Shown: positions 6,467-63,676 of the stretch, one piece after another | Layout: the number at the start of each line of letters is the position of its first letter | Numbering within the stretch: the stretch's first letter is position 1 | NCBI GenBank assembly: GCA_963717285.1 | Contig: CAVQVW010000004.1 | Coordinates: forward strand, 710,905 to 774,904 | Length of the DNA stretch: 64,000 nucleotides | Direction of reading: 5' to 3' | Origin: an uncultured Thermoleophilia bacterium | GTDB taxonomy: Bacteria; Actinomycetota; Thermoleophilia; UBA2241 | Position numbers and translations under genes: made by a program | The notes under the pieces: generated by a model | The model's database searches: none | Told to the model about the DNA's origin: nothing | The model's input: only the letters and a program-made list of their open reading frames with translations

Positions 6467-6962
6467 GGCTGCGCTCTACCCAACCCCGCGGCAAGGCGAA
6501 CCAGCCGGGACGCGATAGTCTCGATCGCGACGCCCGCGCGAGCGACCACCGCCCACTGAGGAACGATACACATGAAGAAGATCGGCATCGTCACCCGCGC
6601 AATTGCAGGGGTTTGTCTGTTCCTATGGATACCGACGACCCCGCTCTGCAGCCCGCCCGCAATCCTTTTTGCAGCCGAACGCAGCGTCAGGCAGCGATTC
6701 TGAGCGGCATTCGCCGGCACTGGGCGGCACTACGGCCTGAGATCCGCACACCGCACCGGGGCAGCGCCCGCCGGCCCCGAGACGATCGGCTTCCCGGACT
6801 CCGACTTCGCCCCGCCGAAACCTATGCCGGAGGTGGCTCAGGGACCAACACAAGAAGTGGACCGACGAATGGGATCCGGTCAGATCTGCACCCCTGGAGT
6901 CGGTCCACCTGCAGTGTCGGGTCTCTCGACGGGTGAAGGAGGCAGATCATTCCGAGGACCTC

Positions 6963-7265
6963 CCACGTGTTCCTCCTGCAACCCTCCTGCAACCGCACCT
7001 AGCGTCATTGGGTGGCACTCAATGTCACTAGGTAGCAGATCGACGCGATTCTCTACGCGTAGAACGGCACTCCCTGGCACTTGGCGGCACTACCTGACAC
7101 CATTTCTACAGCCCTCTCACGGCGGTAACACGGGTTCGAATCCCGTATGCGCTACCACCCCATTTCAGGTTCAAATGCAGGGGTTTTGCGTACTCCCGAG
7201 GATTCCGACGACCCCTTCTGCAACCCGTGTGCAGCCCTCCTGCAACCGAACCTGGCGTCACTTGA
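6963..7265 (+). repeat. Composite A-C-A repeat element: A iteron module (6963-6997), GGCAC 10-bp repeats, tRNA-3'-half-like C core (7092-7166), second A module (7226-7262)
   Basis: Near-identical copies occur at 58515-58810, 61805-61995, 38195-39900 (interrupted by an insertion sequence) and 19025-19410. The core ends GGTTCGAATCCCGTATGCGCTACCA. Confidence 0.8.
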
Positions 7266-7369
7266 TGGCTCTCGCTGTCACTCGGCGGCAGATCGACTCG
7301 GTTCTTCACGCTCGGAGAGGCACTGGGCGGCACCCAGCAACATGTGCTGACAGACTCGCGCTCGGCTAG

Positions 7370-8422
7370 TCAACTCCTGTCCGCCCCTAGACTCCTGAGC
7401 ATGTGGCCTGCACGGCGTCGTGCCTGCCAGTAGACGTCCGGCGCTTGGCGGCGTGCGACCTGCCACTCCTCGTCCAGCGACCAGAGCCGGGATCGCTGGT
7501 TCGGATAGACCGAGAGGGGAGTGGCGCGATGCGGTCTCGCTCCCAAGCGGGACTTGAACTCCTCGTTGCCCCAGAGCAGGTTGAAACTCCGGAAGCCTCG
7601 GGAGATCGCGTCACAGACGTCCCAGTAGATTGCGAGCAGCGACAACCCGTAGCGGTCAAAGCCAGGCTGCACCGCCGCCTGCTGGGCACACACGCTAGTC
7701 CCCACCGGGAAGTTGAACGAGAGCGCCGCCATCTCACCGTCGATTGATGTCAGGCGAATCTCCCCCCGGCGTCTCAGCAGAGCCTGGAGGTTGCGGGCAA
7801 CCTGCGGATGGGTCTCCCAATACGTCTGCTTCCCCCGTGCATGGAAGCTGGCTTCCTTCCACTGCACCAGCTGCCTGAGCAATGCGGGCGCCCTCTCGTC
7901 GACGGGCATGGTCTTCGTTGCCACCTCACTGAAGTCCCGCCTCAGTCGATTCTGATAGCTGCGCAGGTGCCTGCTCCTGCCGAGCGATGCGGCGTACTCC
8001 TCCTCGGTCTCGGGCAGCTCTATCACCATGTGATCGGTGTGGTGGAGCACCCTCGAAGGGAGAGCCAGTGTCGAGGGCGCAAACATCACCTCGAAGTGGA
8101 TGCGGCGCACGTGCGGAAAGGCGCGGAAGAGCGCTTGGCCGGCGCGCCTTGCGTCTTCTGGGGCGATGTCGAACGTCTTGTTGAGGATTTCGACGGTCGC
8201 GCCCTTGCCCGTGAAGAGCAGCACATGGCGAGGCTTCTCCAGGATGCACGCTCCCATCCATTCGGGCATGTCATGGGTCTCGAACCAGTCGACAGTCGCG
8301 AACAAGCTCGAATAGAGTCCGTCGAGCTCGGCAGCATAACGACTCGGGTCGACTCGGGGGTGGACCCTTGCGCCAAGATCGGCGAAGAGGAACGGGCCAG
8401 GCCGACTAGCGGACCCAGACAT
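7370..8422 (-). CDS. GNAT-fold N-acetyltransferase (CelD/BcsL / Acetyltransf_6-like)
   Basis: 350-aa ORF with a ...LLWGNEEFKSRLGARP motif. An intact reading frame. A frameshifted copy lies at 60509-61690. Confidence 0.55.
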   Translation of the reverse strand: MSGSASRPGPFLFADLGARVHPRVDPSRYAAELDGLYSSLFATVDWFETHDMPEWMGACILEKPRHVLLFTGKGATVEILNKTFDIAPEDARRAGQALFRAFPHVRRIHFEVMFAPSTLALPSRVLHHTDHMVIELPETEEEYAASLGRSRHLRSYQNRLRRDFSEVATKTMPVDERAPALLRQLVQWKEASFHARGKQTYWETHPQVARNLQALLRRRGEIRLTSIDGEMAALSFNFPVGTSVCAQQAAVQPGFDRYGLSLLAIYWDVCDAISRGFRSFNLLWGNEEFKSRLGARPHRATPLSVYPNQRSRLWSLDEEWQVARRQAPDVYWQARRRAGHMLRSLGADRS

Positions 8423-8555
8423 CAGGCGGTCGCGTCTTCGTTGTTGTCTCGCGCATGGACTCACACTCGGCGCGAGGCGAGCGCCCCGTCGAGCCGTGCG
8501 CGAATCCCATGCGCAGTAGGGCCGGTCTCGGACGAATGCCTCGCATGCTGGCATA

Positions 8556-9069
8556 CTACCCGACGATCGGCCTCACCGGGCACCGTTCATCGGTCCTCTT
8601 CCCACGATAGTCCCAGAGCCACCTCCGGCATAGGTTTCGGCGGCCCGTGGTCAGCGAGCGAGAAGCGGGGAAGGCGATTGTCTCCGGTACCAGCGGGCGT
8701 TGCCCCAGCCAGCTGTGCGGGCGCAGACTGTTGTAGAGCCGGCGCCAGTCGGCGATCAGGATCTGCGCCTCCTTGAGCATGGAGAAGATCTCACCGTTCA
8801 GAAGCTCGTCGCGCAGCTTGTCGACGAACGACTCGATGCTAGCCGTTATCCCAAGGTTGGGCCGGCTCGATTAACCGGCTGGTGACGCCGAGCACGCTCA
8901 ACCACTCCCCGACGGCTCTGGCCACGAACTCGGGTCCGTCTTCCGATCTGATGTGCTCGGGGATGCCGTACTGAAGGAAGAGGTCGGAGAGCGTCATCAG
9001 CACCTCGTGGCTTCTGATGCGGCGCGCCACGCTGATCGCCAGGCATTCGCGCGTGTACTCATCGACCAC
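8556..9069 (-). pseudogene. IS3/IS481-family transposase C-terminal fragment (rve integrase core), interrupted
   Basis: ...DGPEFVARAV...PWDNG then ASIESFVDKLRDELLNGEIF...WRRLYNSLRPHS. An internal stop/frameshift separates the two parts. A B-module inverted repeat follows at 8573-8642. Confidence 0.7.
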
Positions 9070-9094
9070 GGTGAGCAGCTTCAGCGGGCGCCCG

Positions 9095-9232
9095 TCGTGG
9101 GTGTGACCTGCACCCCTGGCATCGGTCCACCCTCGGGGCGGTGGATCTCGCGAGGCATCCTCTGGCTCCTTGATCGGTCGCGAAACCCTGCAGTGAAGCT
9201 GGGCCGATTTCAGGAGCGCAGGTCATGAGTAG
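9095..9232. repeat. Inverted pair of D modules (MITE-like, roughly 135 bp) with TGACCTGCACCCCTG...TCGGTCC termini
   Basis: D' at the left and D at the right in inverted orientation. Single D copies occur at 3140-3175, 6880-6935, 10255-10300, 34095-34165 and 45565-45640. Confidence 0.6.
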
Positions 9233-10254: not shown

Positions 10255-10720
10255 TCATCTGCGCTGACCTGCACCCCTGGAATCGGTCCAGGCTGGACTG
10301 TGGCTCTCCGGCCGATGACGGACGGTGGGGACGTGTGGGCTCCTCCGATATGTCCCGTCTGCAACCCTCCTGCAACCGAACGCAGCGTCACGCGACGGCG
10401 GCATCCAGTATGGCCGAGCCGGCCGCCACACTTGAGAGGCCGACATCGTTGTGGATATCGAAGAACTCGGAACGGCGTCGAGCGCGACTGCGCGACGACG
10501 GCGACCTCCTTCCCGGCCATCGCCATGGTGACGGCCAGGTTGCACACCAACGTGGTCTTGCCCGCCTGTGCTCGCGCAGGTCACTTGACGACGTCCGTCG
10601 GGGGCTGAGGCGATCGTCTTCCCCGGCTTCTCACTCTCCGACTTCTCCCCGCCGGGACCTGTGCGGGAGGTGGCCCTGGGACTAACATAGGCAGTGGACC
10701 GACGAACGGGGTCCGGTCAG
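10255..10720 (+). mobile_element. Non-autonomous IS-derived element: D' left end, A iteron module (10355-10395), internal ParA/MinD-like ATPase fragment (10430-10570, minus strand), B right end (10650-10720)
   Basis: The module order D'-A-cargo-B matches the shorter A-B copies. The internal fragment reads RAQAGKTTLVCNLAVTMAMAGKEVAVV (deviant Walker A). Confidence 0.5.
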
Positions 10721-12200: not shown

Positions 12201-12502
12201 GCCAGGATCAGGTGACCCTGGAAACGGAGCCCCCGTCTAGCCTAGGCCGCGCTCAGAATGGGAAGTAGTCCTCGCTCGATTCAGAGCCGATGAGCGTCTA
12301 GGGGCTTCGACTTCCGTCGATGCGTGACGTGGCCGTCATGTCGCGGCTACGTGCGACCGCCTACACACCGGCGAGCAGGCGGATGCCCGCCTCTCGATTC
12401 ATCCGACGGCACACGGGGAACCTCTGGGGTGCGGGAACGTCCTCTTCTTGGGAGGCGCGACCCCGGCCGGCCCTCACCCCCGATGCGAAGGAGTCTCCAT
12501 CC

Positions 12503-13711: not shown

Positions 13712-14078
13712 AGTGAGCGCCGGCGACGTGACCCGACCCCATTCGTTGGTCCACTTCCCATGTTAGTCCTATGGCACACTCCGGCACGACCCCACAAGCG
13801 GTGGACCGAGCAGCGGGTCCAGTCAACGTCATGTGATCCCCTTCTCTCGAGCGGGCACACACGCCGTAGGGCGAGTTCGACCGCTTGATGCGCCTGTGCG
13901 TGCCTGCGCACAGGGCGATCTCCACACGCCTCCCCGTCTGCCGCGCGGGCAACGGGAAACAGTGGGGCTGCGACCGGTCTCTGTCGATGCTTGTCGCAGG
14001 AGTCCATGAAGGGGCATGCGGCCGAGTTGCCCCGAGAGCCGTGTTGCCCCGGACACGAGCGACGGGGGTGCGCTTCTC

Positions 14079-15133: not shown

Positions 15134-15344
15134 CAGAGTGCGTCGGAAGAGCCGGGCTCAGGAGTGACGGAGGCCCTTCGGGGCCTCCGTTCTCGTCCGT
15201 CTCCCCAGCGATTGCCACCCCCGTCACCTGAGCGGGATGACCATGCGCCGCCCGTCGCGGCGAAGCTCCGCGCAAACGCCTTCGCCTCGGCTTCGGCCAG
15301 GCAGACGGACAAGGCGACTTCCGAGCATTCCGCCGACCCCTCTC

Positions 15345-15515
15345 TGCAACCCGTCTGCAACCCTCCTGCAACCGAACCTGGCGTCACGGGATGGTGCTGG
15401 GCGGTGGTCGCTGGCATTTCGCGGCACATAGACGCGCCCTCCGACTTCGCCCTCCGGTACGTACGCGGAAGGTGGCTCTGGGACCAACATGAGAAGTGGA
15501 CCGACGAATGGGGTC
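15345..15515 (+). repeat. A-B MITE-like element (about 170 bp)
   Basis: A module CTGCAACCCTCCTGCAACCGAACCTGGCGTCAC and B terminus ...GGACCGACGAATGGGGTCCGG. Sister copies lie at 16400-16566 and 25058-25292. Confidence 0.75.
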
Positions 15516-15684
15516 CGGGCCACGTCCCGGCCAGTGGGACCGTCTCCGACTGCGGCGCTACGTGCGTCTCGGAACGCGAGAGCGCAGACCTGCGTGGAGC
15601 GGTCTCCGATCTTGCGAGCGCGTTTCCGGACGGCTGATTCAGGAAAGGCCAAGGGCGGGATCTGCCATCTAGTCGGAGGGTGTC

Positions 15685-16368: not shown

Positions 16369-16399
16369 GCAGGCGCGCCCGAGCGCCGGATGATCCCTT

Positions 16400-16566
16400 T
16401 GTGCCGCCCTCCCGCAACCGAACCTAGCGTCACACGTTGGTGCTGGGCGGTACTCGCTGGGACTGCTCGGGACAACGGCGAGCTTCACGACGAGGTCGCT
16501 GGCACCTATGCGGGGGGTGGCCCTCCGACCAACATGCGAAGTGGACCGACGAATGGGGTCCGGTCA
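16400..16566 (+). repeat. A-B MITE-like element
   Basis: Same module order and termini as 15345-15515. Confidence 0.7.
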
Positions 16567-17860: not shown

Positions 17861-17872
17861 AGGAGGCAGACT

Positions 17873-18363: not shown

Positions 18364-18666
18364 CTTTGCGAGGTGGATGCTCTGAAGACGACCATACCCG
18401 CTTTTCGACTGCCGCCAAGCACCGCTTCCCGTCCGCTCCCATCCAGTCGCACGCATCTGGGTTGCAGTATGGTCGCAACCGGGCCTACCGGAGGTGCGCA
18501 CGCAGCGCTGTCCAGTGCCGCGCGCTGCCAGCGCGTACCGTCCAGCACCATCCCGTGATGCTAGGTTCGGTTGCAGGAGGGCTGCAGACGGGCCCTCGCA
18601 CTCTCACAGGAAGCGGACCAACGAACGGGCAGGCAGTCTGCCGGCGTCTCCCTCCGATCTGTTCCT

Positions 18667-18852: not shown

Positions 18853-19024
18853 CTTCGCTCCCTCTGGTTCGGCTGCTCTCGGCCTTTCCTCACTGCTGCT
18901 CGCACGGGACCTCGTCTTGCCCCATGCGTCGCGACCCACTCGGGCATACATACCCGCATCCACGTCACCATGAGCACGGGACTTGTACCGCCCACCACCA
19001 GCGACTACCGCTCGGCACCGTCCC

Positions 19025-19410
19025 GTGACGCTGGGTTCGGTTGCAGGAGGGTTTCAGACGGGTTGCAGAGAGGGGTCAGCGGAATCCTCGGGAGCCCACA
19101 GAACCCCGTATTCACGCCTGAAGAGGGGTGGTAGCGAATACGGGACTCAGAACGTCAAGGCTCACTGGTGATTCGTACTGGATACCCAACCGATGTCGGA
19201 GGATTCTCCTGCATGAACGACGAGCGCTTGAGGGCCTATGGGGGCATTGCGGGACACCGGATGCGACACCTCTCAGCCTACACGGCTGCGAGGTTCAGAA
19301 CTCCATCCTGTCGACGATGTCGGAACCCTCAAGAACCATCTTTCCCACCAGCGCGTACCGCCCAGCACCATTGCGTGAAGCTAGGTCCGGTTGCAGGAGG
19401 GCTGAAAGCA
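19025..19410 (-). repeat. Partial A-C-A composite (A' modules at 19025-19070 and 19375-19410; only the last ~20 nt of the C core retained)
   Basis: Contains ...GGTGGTAGCGAATACGGGACTCAG plus a conserved AAACCCCTGCATTT-like spacer. Confidence 0.5.
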
Positions 19411-19463
19411 AGTTGCACACGAGCGCGTCAGGTTGAGCCGCGTGCTGGATCGTGCCGGCGACT

Positions 19464-25027: not shown

Positions 25028-25057
25028 GGCGTGACCGGACTCGATTCCTAGTGACCT

Positions 25058-25292
25058 GCAACCCTCCTGCAACCGAACCCAGCGTCACGGGATGGTGCTG
25101 GGCGGTAGTCGCTGGTAGTGAGCGGCGCTGGAGAGCGCGTCGGCACAGCTCACTGAGACAACGCCCGCCGGCGCCTAGGACGGAGCGTCCGGCGGAGGTT
25201 CTCGCTGGCCGACTACGGGCCGCCGGTACCTATACGAGAGGTGGCTTCGGGACTAGCATGACAAGTGGACCGAAGAATGGGGGTCCGGTCAG
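25058..25292 (+). repeat. A-B MITE-like element (about 235 bp)
   Basis: A module at the 5' end and B terminus at the 3' end. Confidence 0.7.
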
Positions 25293-28275: not shown

Positions 28276-28596
28276 CTAGATCAGCGCACCGGGCTCAGGC
28301 ATCGGATGGTACAGCTGCCGTGCCAGCAGGTCGTTCTGGATCGCCGCGCACAGCCGCTGCTTGGTCTCCGCATGAGCCGGGTCATCCCACAAGTTGTCGA
28401 TCTCCCGTGGGTCGTTCACCCGGTCGTAGAGCTCACCCTCGGTGCCGTCGTAGGTCGGCGTCGCTTCGTATTTGATGCATGTGTAACGCTCGTCGCGGGC
28501 CGCGTTCATGATGATGTGGGCATCCGGCGTGTGAGACTCGTACTGAGTGAAGACGAGCTTGCGGTCCGGAGCCTCGGCTGACCGGATCCCATTCAT
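28276..28596 (-). pseudogene. sulfatase C-terminal fragment
   Basis: ...YDGTEGELYDRVNDPREIDNLWDDP is a typical arylsulfatase C-terminus. It is truncated at a B-module copy (28579-28650). Confidence 0.55.
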
Positions 28597-28892
28597 CGGT
28601 CCACCTTCTATGCTAGTCCCGGGGCCACCTCTGGCATGGGCGCCGGCGGGGCGAAGTCATTGAGTGAGAACCCCGGACAGATGATCGTCTCGGGTACCGG
28701 AGCGCGCCCACCGAGAGAGCTGTGGGGCGCGGTTTGGTGAGCCATCCGGCCGACTCGCGGGTTAGAATCGATCGACCGTGCCGTAGGCCACTGTGACCGG
28801 ACCCCATTCGTCGGTCCACTTCCTATGGTAGTCCCATGGCCACCTCTGGGACAGGCTCGGCGGGCCAAGCTTCTTGACACGGTGCGCGTCAA

Positions 28893-30483: not shown

Positions 30484-31555
30484 TACCCTCTCATCTCCAA
30501 TCCTTCAGTCAGGCTGTGCTTCCGTCACCCGGCGCGACAACGCGTCCGCGTCGCCGTGATCGTTCGCATTCTCCTTGCTCCTCGCTAGCCGCCTTCTGCA
30601 GTTGTGACGATATGGCCGAAGCGCACCGAATGCGCCCTCCGAACGGGGAGACTACGAGCTGGCGACGGGACCAGTCATCCCCCTGGCCTACTGGCCAGCC
30701 GAGGAGGCACGTCTCGACTTGTGCTGTGTTCCACTGTGCCTCCTCCCGTATTCCAGTACTGTCGGTCCAGCCGCGATCGACGGCCAGGTCGCTTGGACTT
30801 CTCTCTTCGTTGTCAAGGTTCACGTGCCCGTGGGCACCGTGGTCGCCCCGGCCGCAACGCCGTACTTGGGAACCGTACGGAGCGGTCGGCGAGCGTAGAG
30901 GGCAACGAGAGTGGCGACGGAGCCGAGCAGGAACACGACCCAGAGAGCTGGGGCAATGATGAGAGCATCTGCCCTCGCCTACGACGACTCGAGCCAAGCA
31001 TCGTGATCGTTGGGGGCGGCTTGTAGTCGTATGCGCGCATCCTCGCCGCCTCGTCCTCAACCCACGCATGGAACTTGGCAGCTGCCCACGCCCTCTGCCC
31101 GACGATGGCGAACAGCAACGCACCGGAAGAGGCGAGCAAGAAGGCCTTCGATCCGACGAGACGCCTCAAGGCTTGCACAGTGCCTTCGCCCCCCGCTCCG
31201 TCGACCACCACGAATCGCGCGACCCGACCACACTCGTCAGTCCACGACCGGACCCCGTTCGTCGGTCCACTTCCCATGCTGGTCCCAGAGCCACCTCCCG
31301 CGTGAGCTGAGGAGGTCCGTAGTCGGCAAGCGAGAAGCCCGGCCAGACGGTCGCCTCAAGCTCCGTTCGGGCGTCGGCTCAGCGTGTCGTGCGGACGCGC
31401 TCCCCAGTGCCGCCCACTACCAGCGATCCCCGCCCAGCGCCATTGCGTGACGCTGGGTTCGGTTGCAGGAGGGCTGCAGGGGAATCGCGGACTTGCGCGG
31501 GCGCACACGAAGCCCGTCCCCCTCGTCGAGCGCACGTGATAGGTTCAGCTGAGTA

Positions 31556-33830: not shown

Positions 33831-33929
33831 AGCCTGCCCCGATGGGCGGCGGCTATGGGCGGCCAGTCGGTGGAGGCGTATCACACCATGACCTGACGGA
33901 AGGTCTCGTCCCCAAGCACGGGGGTATCT

Positions 33930-34165
33930 CCCTTGCCCTCAGAGATCCCCGGGGCTATGTCGACCTTCAGACAGGCCGGCGGCATGGAAGAGGTTCCCGT
34001 CACGTGACGTCGAGCGGTGTCCAGTCGGACGTCGTCCCTTGCGTCGCTTGGCGATGATCTCCTCGGGGCGGTAGGTCTTCCTGGACATGATCTGACTCCT
34101 TCATCGGTCGTGAAACCCGAGACTGCAGGTGGGCCGAGTTCAGGTATGTAGGTCACTACTACTGC
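33930..34165 (+). repeat. E-D repeat (about 235 bp; second copy at 45400-45640)
   Basis: Shared sequence ...GTCGTCCCTTGCGTCGCTTGGCGAT...CTCCTCGGGGCGGTAGGTCTT... ending in the D module. Confidence 0.55.
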
Positions 34166-35236: not shown

Positions 35237-35459
35237 AGGGTCAGTGGCGCTGACCGGACCCCATTCCTTGGTCCACTTCATATGTTAGTGCCAGAGCCAC
35301 TCCCCGAATAGGTGCCAGCGACCTCGTCGTGAAGCTCGCCGATGTGCCGCTCAGTGCCACCGACTACCGTCCATCACCATCCCGTGACGCTAGGTTCGGT
35401 TGCAGGAGGGTTGCAGACGGGATGCAGCGAGGCGAATCGAGGGGACTCGTCGGAGTCGG

Positions 35460-37814: not shown

Positions 37815-38331
37815 TGGATCCCTTCAACCTGAGGATCTGCCTGCCCGTTCTCCATCGAACAAGGACTAGACAGTCCGTGTAGGTGCCAAACGCAGACGCC
37901 CCCTTCTGCATATGACGCTACCACGAGCCTGACACTGCGTCATTGGCAGATCGCGCAAGACCGCAAAGCCGTGCCCCAGTGCGGGCAGGGTGACATGACC
38001 GGACCCCATTCGTCGGTCCACTTCCTATGTTAGTCCCAAGGCCGCCTCGCGCATAGATGCCGCCGGGGCGAAGTCAGAGAGCGAGAAGCCCGGCCAGACG
38101 ATCGTCTCGGGTGCCGGCGGCCGTTGTCGCAGCAAGCTGTGCGGACGCAGGCCGTGTGCCGCCCAGTCCCAGCGCGTACCGTCCAGCACCATCGCGTGAC
38201 GCTGGGTTCGGTTGCAGGAGGGTTGCAGACGGGTTGCAGGAGAGGGTCGCCGGAATCCGTCGGAGCACGCAAAACCCCTGCATTTACCCCTGAAAGGGGG
38301 TGGTAGCGCATACGGAATTTGAACCCGTGTT

Positions 38332-39738
38332 GGCCACGTCCGTCAAGGTGGTGTACGAGGGTCTCCGCTCCATCCGCTTTCCTGATGCTCAGCTCGCCAT
38401 GAGCTGAGGCGTCACCTCCTCGCGCTCCTCGAGCTCGACGAGAGTCGTCGGTGTGAGCTTGGCCAGCGAGCCGGCGCTCATGTAGCGGCGCGCGACCGCC
38501 CACTCGTCGTGCTGTTCGGCGAGCACCATGCCCACGAGCCGCACGACGGCCTCGCGGTTCGGGAAGATGCCGACCACGTCGCTGCGCCGGCGGATCTCGC
38601 GGTTGAGCCGCTCCTGCGGGTTGTTGGACCAGGTCTGCCGCCAGTGCTCCGTGGGGAAGGCGGCGAAGGCGGTCACGTCGGGCGCCGCGTCCTCGAGCAT
38701 CTCGGCGACCTGCGGGAAGCGGCCCCGCAGCTGTTCGAGGACGCGGGCGAGCTGCGCGGCGACCTCCTCGGCCGAGGGCTGCGCGAAGACGGTGCGCACC
38801 AGGGTGGCCACGAAGGGCTGGGCGCTCCTGGGCACGCGCGTCAACAGGTTGCGCATGAAGTGGGTCCTGCAGCGTTGCCAGCCCGCCCCCGGCAGGAGTG
38901 CGTCGATCGCCTTCGTGAGGCCGCGGTGGTCGTCGCTGACGACCAGTTGCACGTCGCCAAGGCCGCGCTCTGTGAGGCCCGAGAGGAAGACCCGCCAGGC
39001 AGCCTCATCCTCGCTCGTGAAGGTGTCGAGCCCGAGGACCTCGCGGAAGCCGTCTGCGTTCACAGCCGTGGCCACGACGCAGGCGGTTCGCACGATGCGC
39101 CCCTGCTCGCGTACCTTGATCGCCAGTGCGTCGAGCCACAGGTAGGGGTAGGGGCCCGCGTCCAGAGGGCGGGCGCGGAAGGCCGCCACCTCCTCGTCGA
39201 GGCTCTTGGCCATCTCGGAGACCTGGCTCTTCGAGAGGTGCTCGATGCCGAGCGTCTTCACGAGGCCGTCGACGCGGCGCGTGGACACGCCCCTCACGTA
39301 GCACTCGGCGACCACCGCGACCAGGGCGCGTTCGGCGCGCCTGCGGCGCTCGAGCAGCCAGTCGGGGAAGTAGCTGCCGCTCCTCAGCTTGGGCACCCCG
39401 AGGGCGATCGTGCCGGCGCGCGTATCGAAGGGCCGCTCCCGATAACCGTTGCGGCGGTTCACGCGCTCGCCTGAGCGCTCACGGAAGGCGGCGCCGCAGA
39501 GCGCGTCAGCCTCGGCGCCCATCAGGCTCTCAGCGACCGTGCGCACCATCTCACGCAGCAGATCGGGCTCGGCTTCGGCCAGCTGCTTGCGCAGCCAACC
39601 GAGAAGGTCCATGTTGTCCTTGGCCACTGTCTCCTCCTCGTCCTGGGCTTCGTCACCCTCGAGGATGGAGCAGTGGTCACCTCTTCATCAAGGCGACCAC
39701 TCTGGATCTGTTCGTACACCACGTCCTGGGACACCAAC
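38332..39738 (-). mobile_element. IS256-family insertion sequence (1407 bp) with 8-bp target-site duplication CCCGTGTT, inserted into the tRNA-like core of an A-C-A repeat
   Basis: CCCGTGTT at 38324-38331 and 39739-39746. Imperfect terminal inverted repeats ...GTGGTGTACGA. Confidence 0.8.
38389..39627 (-). CDS. IS256-family (Mutator-like) transposase, intact
   Basis: 412 aa with ...RNGYRERPFDTRAGTI...YPYLWLDA...VVSDDHRGL... motifs. Confidence 0.85.
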   Translation of the reverse strand: MAKDNMDLLGWLRKQLAEAEPDLLREMVRTVAESLMGAEADALCGAAFRERSGERVNRRNGYRERPFDTRAGTIALGVPKLRSGSYFPDWLLERRRRAERALVAVVAECYVRGVSTRRVDGLVKTLGIEHLSKSQVSEMAKSLDEEVAAFRARPLDAGPYPYLWLDALAIKVREQGRIVRTACVVATAVNADGFREVLGLDTFTSEDEAAWRVFLSGLTERGLGDVQLVVSDDHRGLTKAIDALLPGAGWQRCRTHFMRNLLTRVPRSAQPFVATLVRTVFAQPSAEEVAAQLARVLEQLRGRFPQVAEMLEDAAPDVTAFAAFPTEHWRQTWSNNPQERLNREIRRRSDVVGIFPNREAVVRLVGMVLAEQHDEWAVARRYMSAGSLAKLTPTTLVELEEREEVTPQLMAS

Positions 39739-39992
39739 CCCGTGTTACCGCCGTGAGAGGGCTGTGACGTTGTGTCAGGTAGTGCCGCTGAGTGCCACGG
39801 AGTGCCGCCCTACGCGTAGAGAATCGAGTCGATCTGCCACTGAGTGACAGTGAGTGCCACCCAGTGACGCTAGGTGCGGTTGCAGGAGGGCTGCAAACGG
39901 GGGCAGATCGGGGGTCTGCCTCCTTCATCCGTGGAGGGACCCTGGGCCAGGACCTTCAAGCCCTCTCACAGTAGGAAACGTCCGGCCTTCGG

Positions 39993-43243: not shown

Positions 43244-43667
43244 GTGGTCTCACTCCCTTTCTCGCCTGGGGGCCGGCAACGGGCGCGGCCGCCTGGCTTG
43301 AACCGCGCTGCGCTACGGGAAGCGTGGCGCCTTGCTCGCCTCATCAGCGTTTATGAGCTACGCCGGTGCTTCTGTCAACGACCAGATCGCGCTCTAGGTG
43401 GCACACCCCGGTTCTAAATCGGCAGAACCGCTCGGAAGCCATAGCGCCCGAGTCCGCTGATCGTACGAATCAGGCTTCTCCTGAGGAGCTGCGCCGTCGT
43501 GACCGCACCCCATTCATCGGTCCACTTCCTATGCTAGTCCCAGGGCCACCTCCCGCATAGGTGCCGGCGAGGTGGAGTCGGAGGGCGTGAGGCCCGGGAA
43601 GACGCTCGTCCATGGAGTCGCTGGGCGTCCCGTTCGCTCCCATCCAAGTGCGGCGATTTGGGTTGCA

Positions 43668-44993: not shown

Positions 44994-45681
44994 GGTTGCA
45001 GACGGTCGCAGCGGGGTCCTCCGGAGGGCGCACAGAGCCCGATTCAGGCACGAATCGGTGGTGGGCCGCAGGGGAGTCGAACCGCTGACCTCCGCCGTGC
45101 AAGCCCAGCGAGTATTCTGCTAGTAGGTGCCGGGAAGGGCCGCCAAGTGCTGTCTCACGCGTAGGCTGAGAGGTGGGAGTGCCGGCGAGTACCGCTCAGC
45201 ATCATCGCGTGACGCTAGGGTCGGTTGCAGGAAGGTTGCACGCGAGGCATATCGGCGCGGCCAACGCACACTACCCTCCGCCACCGGCAGTGCCGATAAT
45301 GGTCAGCGGGCAGACGACGATCCGGATGAGTGCATCCCTCCGGACTTGCGGTCCTGCTGGTTCGCACACGTCTCCGACGCTACGGGAGGTATCTCTCTCT
45401 GCGCTGGGAGATCTCCGGGGTCATGTCGATCTTCAGATATGGCCGGCGGTAGGGAAGAGGTTCTCGTCTATCGTGCGACGTCGGGCGGTTTCTCGTCAGA
45501 CGTCGTCCCTTGCGTCGCTTGGCGATACTCTCCTCGGGGCGGTAGGTCTTGCCTGGCATGACGTGCTGCCTGATCGGTCGAGAGACCCTACAGTGAAGTT
45601 GGACCGATTTCAGGGGTGCAGGTCACCTTCTCGAACTGCGGCGGCACGGTCGGCTCCAAACGTTCGGGCTTCGCTGTGGTT

Positions 45682-50816: not shown

Positions 50817-50989
50817 GGTGACGACCCGCCAATGGTCTTGGGCGACGCTGCCGGCGCGGGACGCAAGACCCGTTTTCGATTCGCGATACATCGAAGATCT
50901 TGGACGGCCCCAGAATCGTAGACCAAATGGATGCACGGGGTGGAAGCGAACTTCTCCAACGCCGCCGCCGGGAACACTTGCCGGTATTC

Positions 50990-54284: not shown

Positions 54285-54513
54285 CAGCGAGTCACGACGG
54301 ACACGACCTAACAGCACCCCGGGAGACCACCAGAATCGGGACCAGCGACTCTCGCTAGCGCAGGCGGTGGATGCAGGAGGCGGGGCATGCTTCACCCGCC
54401 AGGTTCTCCGTACTCTGGGGCCTGACGGCGTCGATGCTGGGGGTCGAGCGGCATGGGTTTCGGTTGACGCCGCTGGGCGCTCCCAGTTGGTCTCTCGAGG
54501 GTCCATCGCCATC

Positions 54514-55390: not shown

Positions 55391-55392
55391 AG

Positions 55393-56991: not shown

Positions 56992-57253
56992 AACGTCACC
57001 CGCCCTCCACTGTGAACCGAGCGTGTTCGGCGTTGTCTCGTCCTCGCATTGAGCTGTTCGATCTCTCCTCGAGGGTGGGCGAACCTGTCGGCACAGTCAC
57101 CTCGACGATGAGCCGACAACCGGGACTGGAATCCCGACAGCCCGGTGCGCAATCGCCTTGGTGCGTCTTATGCAGTGATGCGTCACTTGGCGAAGAGTGG
57201 AAGACCATCTGTCGCTCTACGCCGTTGCTGCACACGTAGGCCGGCAGCGAAGG

Positions 57254-58213
57254 TCAAATGGCCATGGCGATTGGCTGGCGCCGCCGGTCGACGCCGGTGC
57301 GGCGCTCGTGGGTCATGAATCGGTTCTCTCTGCGCCTTTCCGTTATGCGCCGGTCGACGATATGCGCCTCCAGTGCTGGCGTCGACGCGACCGACGGAAG
57401 CCGCATTGGCGCTACTTCGGCACGACCGGTCCTGTGGCGTCGCTGCCAGGCACTGAGCACTCGGCGCCGTTTCTCGGTTTCAGAGACAATCGTGCGGAGT
57501 ACCCTCAGACCGTCCCTGACGGCGCTCAGGTTGCTGGCGCCATGAAGTCGGCGGTGCTCATAGCTCGGAACTTCAACAACCGTGAGGCCGGCCGCGGCCA
57601 CGCGGATGTTGATCAGGGTCTCAATCTCGAAACCGTCGCCCCACAAGCGCCCGTCACCTCCCGCCGGGGCGGGGGATTGCCAGTCAAGGCCGAGGACGGG
57701 AAGGCATGTGCTCGCCCAGAACGCGTTGTATCCGTAGCACAAGTCGCTGTAGCCTGTCCGACACAGGGCGTTCACCAACCGCATGAGGAAGCGATTGCCA
57801 GCGCGGCGAAACCGGGTGATGTCCGCGCTTCCGCCACCTCTGGTGAATCGGCTTCCCTTGGCGAAGTCTGCGCCGGCGGCCAGCGCATCCACGAAACGGG
57901 GGATTTCCGCAGGATCAGCGGAACCGTCTGCATCCAGCATCACTATCACGTCGCCCGAACACGCCGCAAAACCGCAGGCGAGCGCGTTGCCCTTCCCGCG
58001 TCTCGTCTGCGGGATCACTCGCACGTCGCTGCGTAGCCGCCGTGCAGCCTCCGGAGTCCCATCTGTGGACCCTCCGTCGACCAAGACGACCTCGAAGATG
58101 CTCTCGGGCAGAGCGGCGAGCACGTGTTCGAGGTTCTTCGCTTCATTCAACGCCGGAATGACGACGCTCACCTCCGGACGGCTCCTGCGCAACTCGCTGT
58201 CCGGTCTGTTCAT
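57254..58213 (-). CDS. GT2 polyprenyl-phosphate glycosyltransferase (DPM1/ArnC-like)
   Basis: VSVVIPALNEAKNL...VVLVDGGSTDGT...MLDADGSADP. Confidence 0.7.
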   Translation of the reverse strand: MNRPDSELRRSRPEVSVVIPALNEAKNLEHVLAALPESIFEVVLVDGGSTDGTPEAARRLRSDVRVIPQTRRGKGNALACGFAACSGDVIVMLDADGSADPAEIPRFVDALAAGADFAKGSRFTRGGGSADITRFRRAGNRFLMRLVNALCRTGYSDLCYGYNAFWASTCLPVLGLDWQSPAPAGGDGRLWGDGFEIETLINIRVAAAGLTVVEVPSYEHRRLHGASNLSAVRDGLRVLRTIVSETEKRRRVLSAWQRRHRTGRAEVAPMRLPSVASTPALEAHIVDRRITERRRENRFMTHERRTGVDRRRQPIAMAI

Positions 58214-58514
58214 GAGCCTGCCTTCACGGTCGGTGCGCGTGTTCGGAATAGTATACTTCGAGCACTTGACGCATCCGCGCAACTTCGTTGCCTCGACTGG
58301 CAACACCCTGTGTCTGTGAGGACTCGTCAATCCGCCTTTAACCGCACGGTCAGGGGCAGGGGACCTGACCGGACCCCATTCATCGGTCGACCTCCCGCAT
58401 AGGTACCGGCGCGGCGTAGTCGGAGAGGGAGAAGCCCGGGAAGACTATCGTCTCGGGTGCTGGCCGTCACTGCCTTCCCAGTGTCGTGCAGTGCCAGCGA
58501 TCGCCGCCCAGCAC

Positions 58515-58810
58515 CATCCAGTGACGCCAGGTTCGGTTGCAGGAGGGTTGCAGGCGGGCTGCAGAGAGGGGCCTGCGGAATCCTCTGGAGCACGCAAAAC
58601 CCCTGCATTTACGTTTGAAGAGGAGTGGTAGCGCATACGGGATTTGAACCCGTGTTACCGCCGTGAGAGGGCTGTATCCTAGTGTCAGGTAGTGCCCCTG
58701 AGTGCCACGGAGTGCCGTTCCACGCGTAGAGAATCGGGTCGATCTGCCACTGAGTGCCATTGCGTGCCACCCAGTGACGCCAGGTGCGGTTGCAGGAGGG
58801 CTGCAAGCGG
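58515..58810 (-). repeat. Composite A-C-A repeat element (minus orientation), intact copy
   Basis: A' modules at 58515-58560 and 58775-58810. C core at 58625-58700 ends (reverse complement) ...GGTTCAAATCCCGTATGCGCTACCA. Confidence 0.8.
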
Positions 58811-59026
58811 AGGCAGATCGGGGCATCCCGCCCTGGTTCATTCACTGGTCCACTCCCCACGATGGGATGAGGGCCGCTCCCTCAAGTGAGTGTCGGTCGT
58901 GCCCTTGCGATCTGCTGAGGTTCGGCTCGCCCGACTCGACTAGCGAGTCCGCCCGTCGATTGTGAACGCCGCCGCCAGTGTGGTTTCGAGACTGCCTAGT
59001 GGACCACCACTCGTGGCCATGCCCGC

Positions 59027-60295
59027 TCAGCTCAGCGAAAGCGCTCCTCCAGATAGTGCGCTCACTTCGGACAGCGGTAGCTCCTGGGACTGATTCCCAT
59101 TCCTGATGTAGAACCTCTCGACAGGCTGGCCGTTCTTGTTCTTCGTCTGCACGATGAGCGGCTCACTGACTGGAGCTACGTCGACGCGGCGGACGTCCTT
59201 CTCGTCGATCTCGTCGAACGTCGTCTTCACCTTGCTCGTCACCACTGCTACGCCAAGCTGGTGGCTGAGTATGTTCCTGAGGTGCAGTTCGAATCCGTCT
59301 CGGTCCCATCCCTCGTGCGACAGGTAGTCGTGCTCGAGTCCGACGATCGAGCCGTCGTCGCTCACTCCGATGAGCAGAGTCCCACCGTGCGAATTGGCGA
59401 ACGCTGCCACGGACTTGAGAACCACCTCCTCAAGCGTCTTGCTCACGGTCTCCCGGGGGATGTCCCAGCGCAGCGTGGACTTGAACTCCAGCTCGTCGCT
59501 CTCACCCTCCGAAATCAGGTCTTGCAGCGTGACAGCCGCGGAGGCCTCTTCAGTGGCAGTGATGCCCTCGAGGAAAGCGTTCAAATGCTCCGCTAGCATC
59601 TCGCGGCGCACCTTGATGAACCGTTCGTAGTTCTCGATCTGCCAGAGCTCTCTGTCTTGCGGAATGCACTGCAGCTCAAGGACCTTTGGAAACCTCTCCT
59701 CCACGGCGGACAGATAGTCTGAGGCGCTCGTGTCCGATTTCGCTCGATTTGCCACCTGCGTCAGGAGCGCGCGGTTGGTGAACTCCTGGGCGAGCGCGTA
59801 CTTCACTCGGTTCTCGTGACCATAGCCTGCCTTCTTGAGGAGGGAGTACGGGAAGATGTGGTCCAGCTCGAGCTGGTACTTGCTGCCCATGTTCTTGTGC
59901 AAGCCGATTCCGGTCGTCAAACACACAGCGCCGCGGCTCTTGAGGTACCAGCGCACCATGCTGAACAACGGATTCTGGATCGCACGGCCCTCGAACTCGA
60001 ACGGCATGATCTCCAGCTGCCGCTCTTCCTCGGCGATGACCTGGAGCAGTTCGTCGAAGGGTTGCTTCGATTCGGTGAGGGTCCTCAGGTCCCGGTCAAG
60101 CTTCTGAGGCAGCTGGCTTACGTAGCGCGAGCGCACCTGGGAGTAGTAGAACCACTTCACCATCTTGCGAGTCTGCGCGTCCGTGAGAGGCTTCCCGTGC
60201 ATGTCGAAGCAGTAGACGATAATCGGCACCAGGGCGTAGGGCGAGCTGATCTCCTTGATGTGGTCGACGTACGCGTTCGGTGCGCAGCAGGTTGA
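59027..60295 (-). pseudogene. 5'-truncated defence-type gene: DUF1524 (GmrSD-family HNH-like nuclease, ...YQLELDHIFPYS...) fused to a C-terminal AlbA_2/Schlafen-like domain; the DUF262 N-terminus is lost
   Basis: Real coding ends at the inverted-duplication boundary (60296). The upstream part of the predicted ORF is read through duplicated DNA and is spurious. Confidence 0.55.
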
Positions 60296-60419
60296 CCACG
60301 TAGTCAAGGACCTGACCCTCGAGCTTCTACAACAGTCTGCGCCCGCACAGCTGGCTGGGGCAACGCCCGCTGGCACCGGAGACAATCGCCTTCCCCGCTT
60401 CTCGCTCGCTGACCACGGG

Positions 60420-60490
60420 CCGCCGAAACCTATGCCGGAGGTGGCTCTGGGACTATCGTGGGAAGAGGACCGATGAACGGTGCCCGGTGA
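60420..60490 (+). repeat. B-module copy (right inverted repeat of the IS481/IS3-like element), preceded by the last ~50 codons of the transposase (60296-60420)
   Basis: 60296-60490 is the reverse complement of 8545-8735. Confidence 0.75.
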
Positions 60491-60508
60491 GGCCGATCTT
60501 CGGGTAGT

Positions 60509-61690
60509 ATGCCAGCATGCGAGGCATTCGTCCGAGACCGGCCCTACTGCGCATGGGATTCGCCTACGGCTCGACGGGGCGCTCGCCTCGCGCCGAGTGT
60601 GAGTCCATGCGCGAGACAACAACGAAGACGCGACCGCCTGATGTCTGGGTCCGCTAGTCGGCCTGGCCCGTTCCTCTTCGCCGATCTTGGCGCAAGGGTC
60701 CACCCCCGAGTCGACCCGAGTCGTTATGATGCCGAGCTCGACGGACTCTATTCGAGCTTGTTCGCGACTGTCGACTGGTTCGAGACCCATGACATGCCCG
60801 AATGGATGGAGCGTGCATCCTGGAGAAGCCTCGCCATGTGCTGCTCTTCACGGGCAAGGGCGCTACCGTCGAAATCCTCAACAAGACGTTCGACATCGCC
60901 CCAGAAGACGCAAGGCGCGCCTGCCAAGCGCTCTTCCGCGCCTTTCCGCACGTGCGCCGCATCCACTTCGAGGTGATGTTTGCGCCCTCGACACTGGCTC
61001 TCCCTGCGAGGGTGCTCCACCACACCGATCACATGGTGATAGAGCTGCCCGAGACCGAGGAGGAGTACGCGCGCATCGCTCGGCAGGAGCAGGCACCTGC
61101 GCAGCTATCAGAATCGACTGAGGCGGGACTTCAGTGAGGTGGCAACGAAGACCATGCCCGTCGACGAGAGGGCGCCCGCATTGCTCAGGCAGCTGGTGCA
61201 GTGGAAGGAAGCCAGCTTCCATGCACGGGGGAAGCAGACGTATTGGGAGACCCATCCGCAGGTTGCCCGCAACCTCCAGGCTCTGCTGAGACGCCGGGGG
61301 GAGATTCGCCTGACATCAATCGACGGTGAGATGGCGGCGCTCTCGTTCAACTTCCCGGTGGGGACTAGCGTATGTGCCCAGCAGGCGGCGGTGCAGCCTG
61401 GCTTTGACCGCTACGGGTTGTCGCTGCTCGCAACTACTGGGACGTCTGTGACGCGATCTCCCGAGGCTTCCGGAGTTTCAACCTGCTCTGGGCAACGAGG
61501 AATTCAAGTCCCGCTTGGAGCGAGACCGCATCGCGCCCACTCCCCTCTCGGGTCTCCCGAACCCAGAGCGATTTCCCGGCTCTGGTCGCTGGACGGGAGT
61601 GGCAGGCGCACGCCGCCAAGCGCCGGACGTCTACTGGCAGGCACGACGCCGTGCAGGCCACATGCTCAGGAGTCTAGAGGCGGACAGGAG
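60509..61690 (+). pseudogene. frameshifted second copy of the CelD-like GNAT acetyltransferase gene
   Basis: Collinear with the reverse complement of 7370-8554. At least four frameshifts split it across ORFs 60509-60976, 60802-61137, 61139-61789 and 61515-61955. Confidence 0.75.
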
Positions 61691-61804
61691 TTGGTTAGCC
61701 GAGCGCGAGTCTCTGTCAGCACTTGTTGCTCGGGTGCCGCCCAGTGCCTCTCCGAGCGTGAAGAACCGAGTCGATTTGCCGCCGAGTGACAGCGAGAGCC
61801 ATGA

Positions 61805-61995
61805 AGTGACGCCAGGTTCAGGGTCGCAGGAGGGTTGCAGACGGGTTGCAGAAGGGCCTGGCGGAATCCTGGGAACAGCCAAAACCCCTGCATTTGTATG
61901 CCTGAAGAGGGGTGGTAGCGCACTACGGGATTTGAACCCGGTGTTACCGCCGTGAGAGGGCTGTGACTATGTGTCAGGTGGTGCCGCTGGGAGTT
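61805..61995 (-). repeat. A-C composite, truncated after the C core by the adjacent IS256-like element
   Basis: A' at 61805-61850 and tRNA-like core at 61905-61975. Confidence 0.65.
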
Positions 61996-63400
61996 GAGTC
62001 CCGTAGTGTGGTGTAGAAAGCCCCGGACCTGAGAGCCGAGCGGCATCGGCCACCGGGAGCGTCCTAGAATCGTCGTTGTTCCGCCAAGAACAGTGACGAG
62101 AGGAGCACCACGATGGCCGACCTGGACAGCATGACCGTGAGCGGGGCCGCAGGCAAGATGTCTGACCGGCGGACATGCCGACGTCGTGCGCGAGGCGGTG
62201 CGGCTCGTGATCGCCGAGCTCATGGAGCTCAAGAGGTCGCCGAGCTTGCCGGCGCGGCTCGCTACGAACGCTCTCCCGACGCGCGACGCAGCGCAACGGC
62301 TACCGGGAGCGCCGCTCGGGACACGCGCGCCGGCAGCCTCGAGCTGGCGATTCGCGCGCCTGCGCTCCGGCAGCTACTTCCCGAGCTTCCTCGAGCCGCG
62401 GCGCAGAAGCGAGCAGGCCCTCGTGGCCGTGGTCGCCGAGGCCTACGTGAACGGCGTCAGTACACGCAAGGTCGAGCGTCTCGTCGCACAGCTCGGCATC
62501 GAAGCCTGAGCCGCTCCACGGTGAGCCGCCCTGCAAGACGCTCGACGGGCAGGTGCGAGTCTTCAGAGAGCGCCCCCTGGAAAGACCGTTACCCCTACCT
62601 CTCGCTGGACGCCAGGGTGGGGCGCGTGAGAGAGCCCGGCGTCGTGCGCCACAAGGCCCTCGTGGTCGCCTACGGCGTGACCAGAGCGGCCGCCGCGAGG
62701 TGCTCGGCATCGACGTCGGCGAGTCTGAGACGGAGGCCTTCTCGCGCGAGTTCCTGCGCGGCCTGCTCGCTCGCGGCCTCTGCCGGCGTCGTGCTCTGCG
62801 TCTCCGACGCCCACGAGGGTCTCAAGAAGGCCATCGCCCAGGTGCTCGGCTGCCCCTGGCAGCGCTGTACCGTGCACTTCCTGCGCGACATGCAGGGCCA
62901 CGTGCACCGAAGCCGAACAGCAGATGGTCGCGGCGGCGGATCCGCCAGGTGTTCGCCGCCGAGGAGCTCGGCGAGGCGCGGGCGCGCCTGGCCGGCGTGG
63001 TCGCCAGCCTCGAGGCTGCGGCACCCAAGGTCGCCCTGTTGCTCGAGGCCGCCGAGGAGGAGTTGCTCGCCTTCATGAGCTTCCCCCGCGAGCACCAGAC
63101 GAAGCTACGCTCGACCAACCCGCTGGAGCGCCTCAACGAGGATATCGCGCGGCGCAGCGACGTGGTCGGCATCTACCCGAACGACGAGAGCCTGATCCAC
63201 CTGGCCGGGCCTTGCTGCTCGAACAGAACGACGAGTGGCTCGTCGGGCGGCGCTACCTCTCGGCGGAGTCGCTCGCCGGGCTCTACGCCGCGCAGCAGAC
63301 CGACGAGCGCAGCGGCCCGCGGCGCCGGAAAGGAGGTGGCGCTGCTCACGACCCGATGACCCTGACGACGGTCAGGAACTTACACCAGTCAAGGGACTTG
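61995..63400 (+). mobile_element. degenerate IS256-family element (transposase split over at least four frames)
   Basis: Fragments ...GSYFPSFLEPRRRSEQALVAVVAEAYVNGVSTRKVERLVAQLGIEA, YPYLSLDARVG..., CVSDAHEGLKKAIAQVLGCPWQRCTVHFLRDMQGHV, SFPREHQTKLRSTNPLERLNEDIARRSDVVGIYPNDESLIHLAG. An A' module follows at 63405-63445. Confidence 0.65.
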
Positions 63401-63676
63401 ACCTCCCGTGACGTCAGGTTCGACTGCAGGAGGGTTGCAGACGGGCCGTGGGCAGTCACATCGCGGGCTGAGCGAGTCGAGCTTGCAGCCGCCCCGACTT
63501 CACCCTCCCCGGGGGCCTCACAGCATGCGCACAGCACGCTCCTCATCGGTTTCTCGAAGCGGGCGGGGGCACAGCTGGAACGCACACCCGTGGCCGGCTC
63601 GAGGGTGGCCGCCTCAGGGTGCGACCCCAGCAGGTCGCCTCAGACACGGCAGGCAAGGAGCGCGAGGATGAAGAGA

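Follow-up and report, generated by a model that had tools for sequence, protein, structure and literature searches.

The 64,000-nucleotide stretch of an uncultured Thermoleophilia bacterium considered here (contig CAVQVW010000004.1, positions 710,905 to 774,904; hereafter the window, always meaning this whole stretch) is crowded with dispersed repeats, which an initial annotation had divided into modules named A to D and had described as descended from, or targeted by, an IS481/IS3-like element. Our analysis resolves this repeat load into two ordinary components: the ends of an insertion sequence (IS) of the IS3 family and a tRNA-based attachment (att) site resembling the attP of actinophages and of integrative and conjugative elements (ICEs). 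We assign the repeated unit, with high confidence, to a fusion of the two. What makes it unusual is that a complete attP-like site lies between IS3 inverted repeats (IRs), and that the ends and the att motifs are better kept than the rest of the unit. Both components are of known kinds; in a small literature search we found no description of an att site fused between IS3 IRs at such density. In this Thermoleophilia island the repeats account for gene fragments, for the scrambled synteny and for a large part of the non-coding sequence.

Composition of the repeat unit

With up to three mismatches allowed, the A core CTGCAACCCTCCTGCAACCGAACC has 15 matches in the window and none in 100 shuffled sequences, while the B terminus TGACCGGACCCCATTCGTCGGTCCA and module D, TGACCTGCACCCCTGAAATCGGTCCA, have 12 and five matches, again with none in shuffles. 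Every copy listed in the initial annotation was recovered by self-BLAST and repeat search, and a profile search (nhmmer, profile built from the composite unit described below) gave 27 matches, equivalent to ~25 units or about one per 2.5 kb, in a window whose G+C content is 61–72%. A scan for the A core that covered one genome per species matched a single other genome, an uncultured Thermoleophilia metagenome-assembled genome (MAG; contig CAVYDV010000008.1, loci L001–L004), and the genes that it has in common with the window are 88–97% identical. A plasmid search with 20 kb of the window gave matches limited to actinobacterial IS256 and DUF389 genes.

The identity of modules B and D follows from an intact IS3-family copy of 1,269 bp in this related MAG (L004 3272..2004), which has the hallmarks of IS3 elements: a length within the 1.2–1.5 kb of the family, consecutive and overlapping orfA (in IS3 elements a helix-turn-helix protein) and orfB, a DDE (rve) transposase and imperfect terminal IRs of ~26 bp that start with TG and end with CA. 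The layout includes an orfA (3244..2924; 106 aa, MPRKTYRPEE...) and, overlapping it, an orfB frame without stops between 3063 and 2032. The left inverted repeat (IRL) is TGACCTGCACCCCTGAAATCGGTCCA, the right inverted repeat (IRR) is TGGACCGACGAATGGGGTCCGGTCA, ending in ...AAGTGGACCGACGAATGGGGTCCGGTCA, and the orfB C-terminus (...PETIAFPGFSLSDFAPPRPMPEVTLGLT / ...RPPAPETIAFPGFSLSDFAPPRPMPEVTLGLT) corresponds to the B sequence. With high confidence, then, B can be read as the last 150–180 nt of an IS3-family element, comprising the orfB C-terminus and the IRR, and D as its IRL, which agrees with the earlier suggestion that the two modules are related terminal inverted repeats. The orfB of this copy scores 176 bits on the NCBIfam transpos_IS3 model (cutoff 160) and 116 bits on the IS481 model, under its cutoff of 224, and is 64–71% identical to annotated plasmid IS3 transposases. 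We had also considered B as a live gene, because a frame ...PGFSLSDFAPP..LGLT* exists in it, but stops and indels of lengths other than multiples of three vary among the copies, and the frame was later accounted for as the IS3 orfB tail. When the IS is mapped on the window, its fragments cover IS positions 1–40/122 and about 1089/1213–1269; there are six left-end fragments, 14 right-end fragments, half of which (7/14) begin at IS positions 1088–1117, and one longer piece (9103..8575, IS positions 739–1267). This last piece is the C-terminal half of the transposase (Pfam rve_3 at 8559–8870), in keeping with the initial observation of a B copy directly after an rve-transposase C-terminus.

Module A had been attributed to the same element and likened to iterons, an interpretation contradicted by the intact IS, which has no A module, and by the occurrence of A without any IS3 sequence in another organism (see below). 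It consists of 8-bp CTGCAACC sites in direct orientation with 11-bp spacing, including the third unit noticed initially: a pair at consensus positions 96/107 (A1) and a triplet at 339/350/361 (A2). In front of several A copies stands ...CGGGTTCAAATCCCGTATGCGCTACCA, a sequence resembling the 3' end of a tRNA, and an alignment of the window with viral contigs delimits a common segment of 47 nt, GCCCTCTCACGGCGGTAACACGGGTTCRAATCCCGTATGCGCTACCA, that starts within the anticodon stem, ends at CCA and has unrelated flanks. Judged by its sequence, this core is the 3'-terminal 47 nt of tRNA-Glu(CUC). It is exact at 7111–7157 and 58626–58672, and lies as a tRNA-Glu 3' fragment between two A modules, an arrangement that the initial annotation had overlooked. 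Of the Rfam tRNA model only the stretch between the anticodon arm and the 3' end aligns to it, with 20.9 bits, below threshold. Rfam at gathering thresholds gave no match in the window, and as an ARAGORN tRNA scan of the window was likewise empty, a known RNA family was dropped as the identity of the units.

A scan of viral contigs with the tRNA-like piece CGGGTTCAAATCCCGTATGCGCTACCA found the same segment in five IMG/VR contigs. L005 carries it 107 nt upstream of the gene for a 401-aa tyrosine recombinase, with phage genes on either side; in L006 it is accompanied by paired direct repeats (GATGTGCCCG, twice); and in L007 it is spanned by an ARAGORN call of tRNA-Glu(ctc) with atypical geometry (70 nt, anticodon at position 29), which may itself be an att fragment and which we count as support for the tRNA type, not as a host gene.

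In the consensus, the short sites around the core run as follows. On one side, the CTGCAACC pair is followed by GTCAC, GGCAC, GTCAC and GGCAG in 10-bp steps, a linker of 27 nt, three GGCAC and one GACAC in 10-bp steps, and then the core; 61 nt past the core, the CTGCAACC triplet (11-bp steps) is followed by GTCAC, GGTGC, GGTAC, GGCAC and GGCAC in exact 10-bp steps. The phased G[GT][CT][AG]C sites occupy consensus positions 124–154, 186–216 and 378–418; behind each CTGCAACC cluster, four to five of them follow at a distance of 17 nt from the start of its last site. The 10-bp-phased array had also escaped the initial annotation; GGCACN5GGCAC alone occurs 13 times in the window, where 0.26 occurrences are expected. 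We infer protein binding at both kinds of site: the CTGCAACC clusters are predicted to be arm-type sites of an integrase, and the G[GT][CT][AG]C arrays are putative sites for an accessory protein, e.g. an excisionase. Earlier candidates for A (a sigma-54-like promoter, plasmid iterons or a centromere, a Tn7-like end) were dropped on inspection of the sequence after the tRNA-Glu core and the att architecture had appeared, and we now interpret A and the tRNA fragment together, with high confidence, as the attP-type site of a phage- or ICE-like tyrosine integrase.

In actinophages, attP comprises a tRNA core of 44–47 bp from the anticodon loop and flanking pairs or triplets of 10–11-bp direct repeats, with a direct-orientation pair on the left and three repeats on the right in Pixie (PMC3203893, PMC3706429); the attP of ICEMlSymR7A spans 283 bp with five arm sites, and winged helix-turn-helix excisionase-like proteins form filaments in which one protomer per DNA turn is possible (PMC11963761). 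With these sites (cluster J and K mycobacteriophages, ICEMlSymR7A) the window units share a 47-bp core from the anticodon arm to the tRNA 3' end, pairs and triplets of 8–11-bp direct repeats on both sides within ~250–350 bp, and a second class of phased sites that could serve an excisionase; the same core also adjoins an integrase in phage genomes. They differ in that no integrase or excisionase gene is near, that there are many copies where a phage or ICE has one per element, that the site is enclosed by transposon ends, and that either arm has the same accessory array behind its arm-type sites. L5 and pSAM2 are further tRNA-targeting tyrosine integrase systems, with the consensus TGCaaC... 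for L5 and the motif GTCACGCAG for pSAM2.

A metagenome scan with the A motif gave five matches, four of them chance or unrelated. The related one, L014, comes from a different organism with 70% G+C, in which the neighbouring open reading frames (ORFs) look housekeeping-like by eye (e.g. murJ). Here CTGCAACCctcCTGCAACCgaacc, which is CTGCAACC twice at 11 bp, lies 67 nt downstream of the core and is followed by phased GGCAC, without IS3 sequence; A is hence part of an att arm and does not depend on the IS. In the L014 core (6105–6151), ACATGGG...CCCATAT takes the place of the window's ACACGGG...CCCGTAT. The change is compensatory within the T stem, which suggests that this core derives from a genuine tRNA-Glu gene of slightly different sequence. 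A scan of viral contigs with the A motif gave no match.

Joined together, these pieces form a composite of ~580 bp in the order IRL, IS 5' untranslated region (5'UTR), P arm, core, P' arm, orfB tail (the last 165 nt of the IS) and IRR, so that the att site occupies the place of the transposase genes. A complete unit of 582 bp lies at L004 7728..7147: its left part holds IRL, the IS 5'UTR, the orfA start codon and then P arm, core and P' arm, and its right part, which takes up the IS again at about position 1105 with the YNGLRPHS... tail, ends in a degenerate IRR. Two further units have both IRs and no transposase, at L004 5959..5606 (354 bp) and at window 10265–10717 (453 bp). The fixed order of D, A and B in non-autonomous, IR-bounded units that had been proposed is thus found in the window and in the relative. 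The left junction of the complete unit, from IS 5' end to att site, recurs at window 6883–6975 and 10265–10370, and the right junction, from att site to IS 3' end, is common to at least seven copies in two classes ~10 nt apart, within a microhomology GCGYNCGCAC between native P' arm and IS. By "native" we mean att units without IS3 ends, of which there are at least five (window 18592..18431 and 3163–3272, and three in L001 and L002 of the relative); they extend to one more CTGCAACC site, beyond which unrelated genes follow.

Copies in the window and in the related genome

The copies in the window are listed below, with positions on the composite where a match to it was obtained and with the method in brackets.

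3133..3173, minus strand: IRL (module D) fragment, IS positions 1–41 (motif and IS mapping)
3163..3272, plus: native distal P' arm without IS3 tail, GGCAC twice and CTGTAGCCactCTGCAACC; abuts the IRL fragment
6597..6880, plus: composite 289–579, with spacer, A2 triplet, phased sites, orfB tail and IRR (A and B; profile)
6883..7271, plus: composite 2–392, with IRL, IS 5'UTR, A1 pair, two GGCAC arrays, intact core 7111–7157, spacer and A2 (profile)
7255..7354, plus: second P-arm-type tail after A2, composite 122–221 (profile)
8575..9103, minus: C-terminal half of orfB (rve_3) and IRR, IS positions 740–1268 (IS mapping, Pfam)
9104..9225, no single strand: D..D' structure of 122 nt, in which an IS 5' end (9225..9137, minus, positions 1–86) faces an inverted IRL (9104–9129, plus)
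10265..10717, plus: IRL–IRR unit, with IRL, 5'UTR and A1 pair at 10265–10399 and IS3 tail and IRR at 10565–10717
~10400–10564, minus: antisense P-loop (GKTT...) gene fragment inside unit 10265–10717
13730..13786, minus: solo IRR fragment, IS positions 1213–1269 (motif and IS mapping)
15318..15518, plus: composite 313–578 with internal deletion, a short A...B unit (profile)
16391..16564, plus: composite 329–579 with internal deletion; B-end match to 16566 (profile)
18431..18592, minus: native P' arm with A pair, five phased sites and distal TTGCGACCataCTGCAACC, without IS3 tail; upstream of a glutaredoxin gene
18982..19149, minus: degenerate core, spacer, A2 triplet and phased sites, composite 257–425 (profile)
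19347..19428, minus: A module and phased sites, composite 328–410 (profile)
25055..25288, plus: composite 349–578, with A2 pair, phased sites, IS3 tail and IRR (profile)
28581..28726, minus: IS3 tail and IRR only, composite 436–579 (profile)
28796..28866, minus: IRR fragment, composite 509–579 (profile)
31247..31491, minus: composite 338–579, with A2, phased sites, IS3 tail and IRR (profile)
33906..34155, minus: IRL, 5'UTR, first orfA codons and a variant internal segment common to the 45.6-kb copy (profile)
35253..35434, minus: composite 332–579 with internal deletion; IRR tip at 35251 (profile)
37998..38339, minus: right composite part 239–579, with core 3' part, spacer, A2 triplet, phased sites, IS3 tail and IRR
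38332..39738, minus: IS256-family element within the tRNA-Glu core of a composite, with 8-bp direct repeat AACACGGG
39737..39944, minus: left part (36–256) of the IS256-split composite, with A1 pair, phased arrays and core 5' part
43502..43628, minus: IS3 tail and IRR only, composite 455–579 (profile)
44994..45625, minus: IRL, orfA start remnant, long P arm, A1 pair and phased sites (45625..45178), and a further degenerate P-arm/core piece (45169..44994; profile)
58368..58851, minus: fullest composite in the window, 46–579, with degenerate 5'UTR, A1, arrays, intact core 58626–58672, spacer, A2 triplet, phased sites, IS3 tail and IRR
60328..60488, plus: IS3 tail and IRR only, composite 420–579 (profile)
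61711..62002, minus: P phased array, core (two insertions), spacer, A2 triplet and P-type tail (profile)
63404..63446, minus: isolated A module (motif search, self-BLAST)

At 15.3, 16.4, 25.1, 31.3 and 35.3 kb, the short A...B units are composites that have been truncated or have lost internal sequence, so that their initial description as MITE-like deletion derivatives (MITE, miniature inverted-repeat transposable element) holds. Where two units meet, at 6880/6883, the IRR of one runs head-to-tail into the IRL of the next (…CCGGTCA|GATCTGCACC…). This junction is like the circle or tandem-dimer junction of IS3-family elements, but without the usual 3–4-bp spacer.

In the related MAG every exact A-core match lies within the four loci L001–L004, which are syntenic with window 16.6–17.6, 20.2–22.4, 34.2–35.2 and 36.7–37.9 kb. 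The system thus looks local to one island, not genome-wide, and is common to two related genomes in that island. The orthologous copies at window 38 kb and in L001 are 87% identical, the adjacent gene 96.6%, and read row by row their alignment leaves three CTGCAACC sites unchanged. Synteny with the relative is broken exactly at IRR tips, at 35251 and at 16566/16567 (homology restarts at 16567), and orthologous positions hold different versions of the unit in the two genomes, which points to recombination between copies. For a whole unit the comparison yields these breaks but no clean filled/empty pair. Such a pair does exist for the IS256 insertion at 38332–39738 (412-aa transposase, NCBIfam 343 bits), which is flanked by AACACGGG inside the core: the orthologous L001 1567–2067 is uninterrupted.

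Origin of the units and rival explanations

On balance we consider it probable that the repeats are a relic mosaic of two unrelated mobile-DNA mechanisms, IS3 ends and an attP-type site, that became physically fused and were spread as a unit by IS3 transposase acting in trans. An IS3 derivative of ~580 bp would have arisen with an att site in place of its transposase genes and, being non-autonomous, would have spread within one genomic island through a transposase provided in trans. Decay would then have set in, as units were truncated, lost internal parts, took up a nested IS256 or recombined with one another; this recombination would also have scrambled neighbouring genes. What the sequences show is how the units are built, what each piece is and which parts are conserved, while mobilisation by the transposase, like the protein binding proposed above, is inferred. 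In their make-up the units resemble the MITEs and mobile insertion cassettes of the IS3 family, which likewise keep both IRs, lack a transposase and occur as many truncated copies, with one head-to-tail IRR|IRL junction in our case. Unlike those, they enclose a complete attP-like site, neither a simple deletion remnant nor a passenger gene, they show no visible target-site duplications and an excess of right ends, and their copies are old and, as far as checked, lie in one island.

Several observations weigh against this account. Identity between copies is only ~70–90% (self-BLAST, alignment), and such a divergence of 10–30% gives no sign of recent movement. Conservation over 44 aligned copies, otherwise a point in favour of the account, is 0.92 for IRL, 0.91 for IRR, 0.93 for A2, 0.88 for A1 and 0.90 for the core, compared with 0.70–0.83 for the spacers and the orfB remnant, a contrast that is partly an ascertainment effect since the copies were located through these same motifs. 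IRR-side fragments outnumber IRL-side ones by about 3:1 (~22 vs ~8), which is unexpected, as simple MITE transposition predicts no such bias. IS mapping found no intact IS3 copy in the window; the intact autonomous partner comes only from the related MAG. IS3-family elements are expected to leave a target-site duplication of 3–4 bp. Flanking duplications, which the initial annotation had linked to its MITE reading, were not seen by eye at the intact L004 IS or at any IRL...IRR unit (four IR-bounded elements); divergence or recombination among copies may be the cause. The native units indicate that the att unit was also copied by a route independent of the IS ends. On the integrase side, there is no Phage_integrase domain among ~70 window ORFs (Pfam), tblastn with the L005 integrase was empty in the window and in the relative's loci, and there is no tRNA gene in the window (ARAGORN) or in L001–L004, hence no attL or attR product at a complete tRNA gene. 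Without a cognate integrase, the sites are classed as att-like relics and not as a working integration module. Nor do they form an integron array, which would have an intI integrase, attI and equally oriented attC sites downstream of each cassette: no integrase was found in the window ORFs, and the units, of mixed orientation, lie before genes as well as after them.

The main rival is tandem accretion, in which many elements akin to cis-mobilizable elements (CIMEs) or integrative and mobilizable elements, by now devoid of integrase genes, would have integrated serially at tRNA-Glu att sites, leaving P-core-P' hybrid sites between blocks of cargo; the IS3 ends would then be incidental later insertions, and the shared junctions would descend from one ancestral IS-damaged att site, multiplied by duplication of, or recombination between, the elements. 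It may explain the native units without IS ends, it fits P-core-P' units spaced by one to three accessory genes, as serial integration into attL/attR leaves, and it is compatible both with the confinement of the relative's exact A-core matches to four loci syntenic with the island and with the use of the same core by prophages. As at tRNA hot spots with CIMEs, there are arrays of att-type sites with small accessory gene blocks between them, and recombination genes are missing. Yet here the units lie in mixed orientation, most of them lack the core, and 64 kb contain neither an anchoring tRNA-Glu gene nor an integrase remnant; moreover, identical IS5'-att and att-IS3' junctions recur as fixed boundaries, a complete IRL...IRR unit exists, and the IRs are conserved like the att motifs, unlike incidental debris. 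We therefore rate accretion as possible but rather unlikely. It is highly improbable that all modules, A included, come from one IS3/IS481-like element with CTGCAACC as subterminal iterons and the A...B units as ordinary MITEs. The fixed order of D, A and B within IR-bounded units would suit such an origin, and CTGCAACC matches IRL positions 5–12 (CTGCACCC; e.g. window 45600–45625) at 7/8 bases; this resemblance is probably chance (roughly 1–2% for one comparison), and is the sole hint of the transposase touching A sites. Against a single transposon stand the intact IS, which lacks A, the position of A beside a tRNA-Glu fragment, and the company of A and core without IS3 in L014 and in the native copies; internal iteron arrays are not known from IS3-family elements. 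Nor was the full-length D'-A-transposase-B element anticipated in the initial annotation found, either in the window or within 32 kb of the relative. We give an equally slight chance to a host regulatory origin, with A and its phased sites as operator arrays with an outward promoter, duplicated upstream of accessory genes, and the tRNA and IS pieces as hitch-hikers. Native P' arms do reach to just upstream of a gene, the glutaredoxin gene at 18.4 kb in one case and an ORF at 3.3 kb in another, and short sites phased by 10–11 bp are typical of operator arrays too, but the units keep no consistent orientation or distance to neighbouring genes, many lie at gene 3' ends (e.g. 35251, 16566), orthologous copies diverge about neutrally (repeat 87%, adjacent gene 96.6%), and an exact tRNA 3' segment with att-like boundaries would be left unexplained.

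Within the fused-unit account, the safest reading is that the copies are relics, confined to one island as far as checked, because they are old and no integrase is in sight; their present-day activity is probably nil. A bolder version, in which the unit is, now or recently, a "portable attachment site", that is, an IS3-derived miniature transposon whose attP-like site is complete and serves a tyrosine integrase specific for tRNA-Glu, strikes us as decidedly unlikely. Were it true, a transposase could seed integrase landing pads or recombination sites around the island, and small gene blocks could enter, leave or flip there, as in an integron-like cassette platform made of transposon ends and phage-type att sites. 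Mobile units of this kind would link transposition to site-specific integration, a link of which a small literature search gave no description.

Other features of the window

The ATPase fragment at ~10400–10564, called ParA-like in the initial annotation, is real (GKTTLVCNLA..., minus strand), although by eye it looks like a P-loop fragment of the tyrosine-autokinase type, antisense to its unit. It may come from a kinase gene of the polysaccharide cluster type. A polysaccharide-biosynthesis cluster occupies 45591–58444 (minus), with epimerases and GT1, GT2 and GT4 glycosyltransferases. Its third-position G+C is below that of the other parts of the window, and it lies between composite units at 45.6 and 58.4–58.9 kb.

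Other mobile elements comprise an IS110-family (RNA-guided, DEDD) transposase gene at 43839–44966 (plus; NCBIfam 192 bits), whose non-coding flanks would be the place of a bridge RNA, and a second IS256-family transposase at 62141–63356 (plus), spread over two frames and likely a pseudogene, which adjoins the isolated A module at 63404–63446. A gene for a bacterial eRF1-like protein (baeRF family 3/7) at 12320–13711 (plus) is directly followed by the solo IRR fragment. The ORF at 59030–60847 (minus) has a C-terminal Schlafen/AlbA_2 domain, and its N-terminal 170 codons overlap the antisense IS3 tail at 60328–60488, so that the true gene is probably shorter.

Repeats of other kinds are also present. 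A 300-bp direct repeat (20195–20494 and 21466–21765, 92%) reflects a duplicated NmrA-like/NAD-binding gene with one truncated copy. A 211-bp repeat (41599–41809 and 42494–42704, 85% identity) and a GGC/GAG-rich tandem tract with an 18-nt period (42686–42835) belong to ORFs for low-complexity membrane proteins rich in Ala, Pro and Ser. The in-frame repeats of ~130–140 bp at 14166–14804 ("QIDGGQVVW..." units, ORF 14204–15130) look like protein-domain repeats, not mobile DNA.

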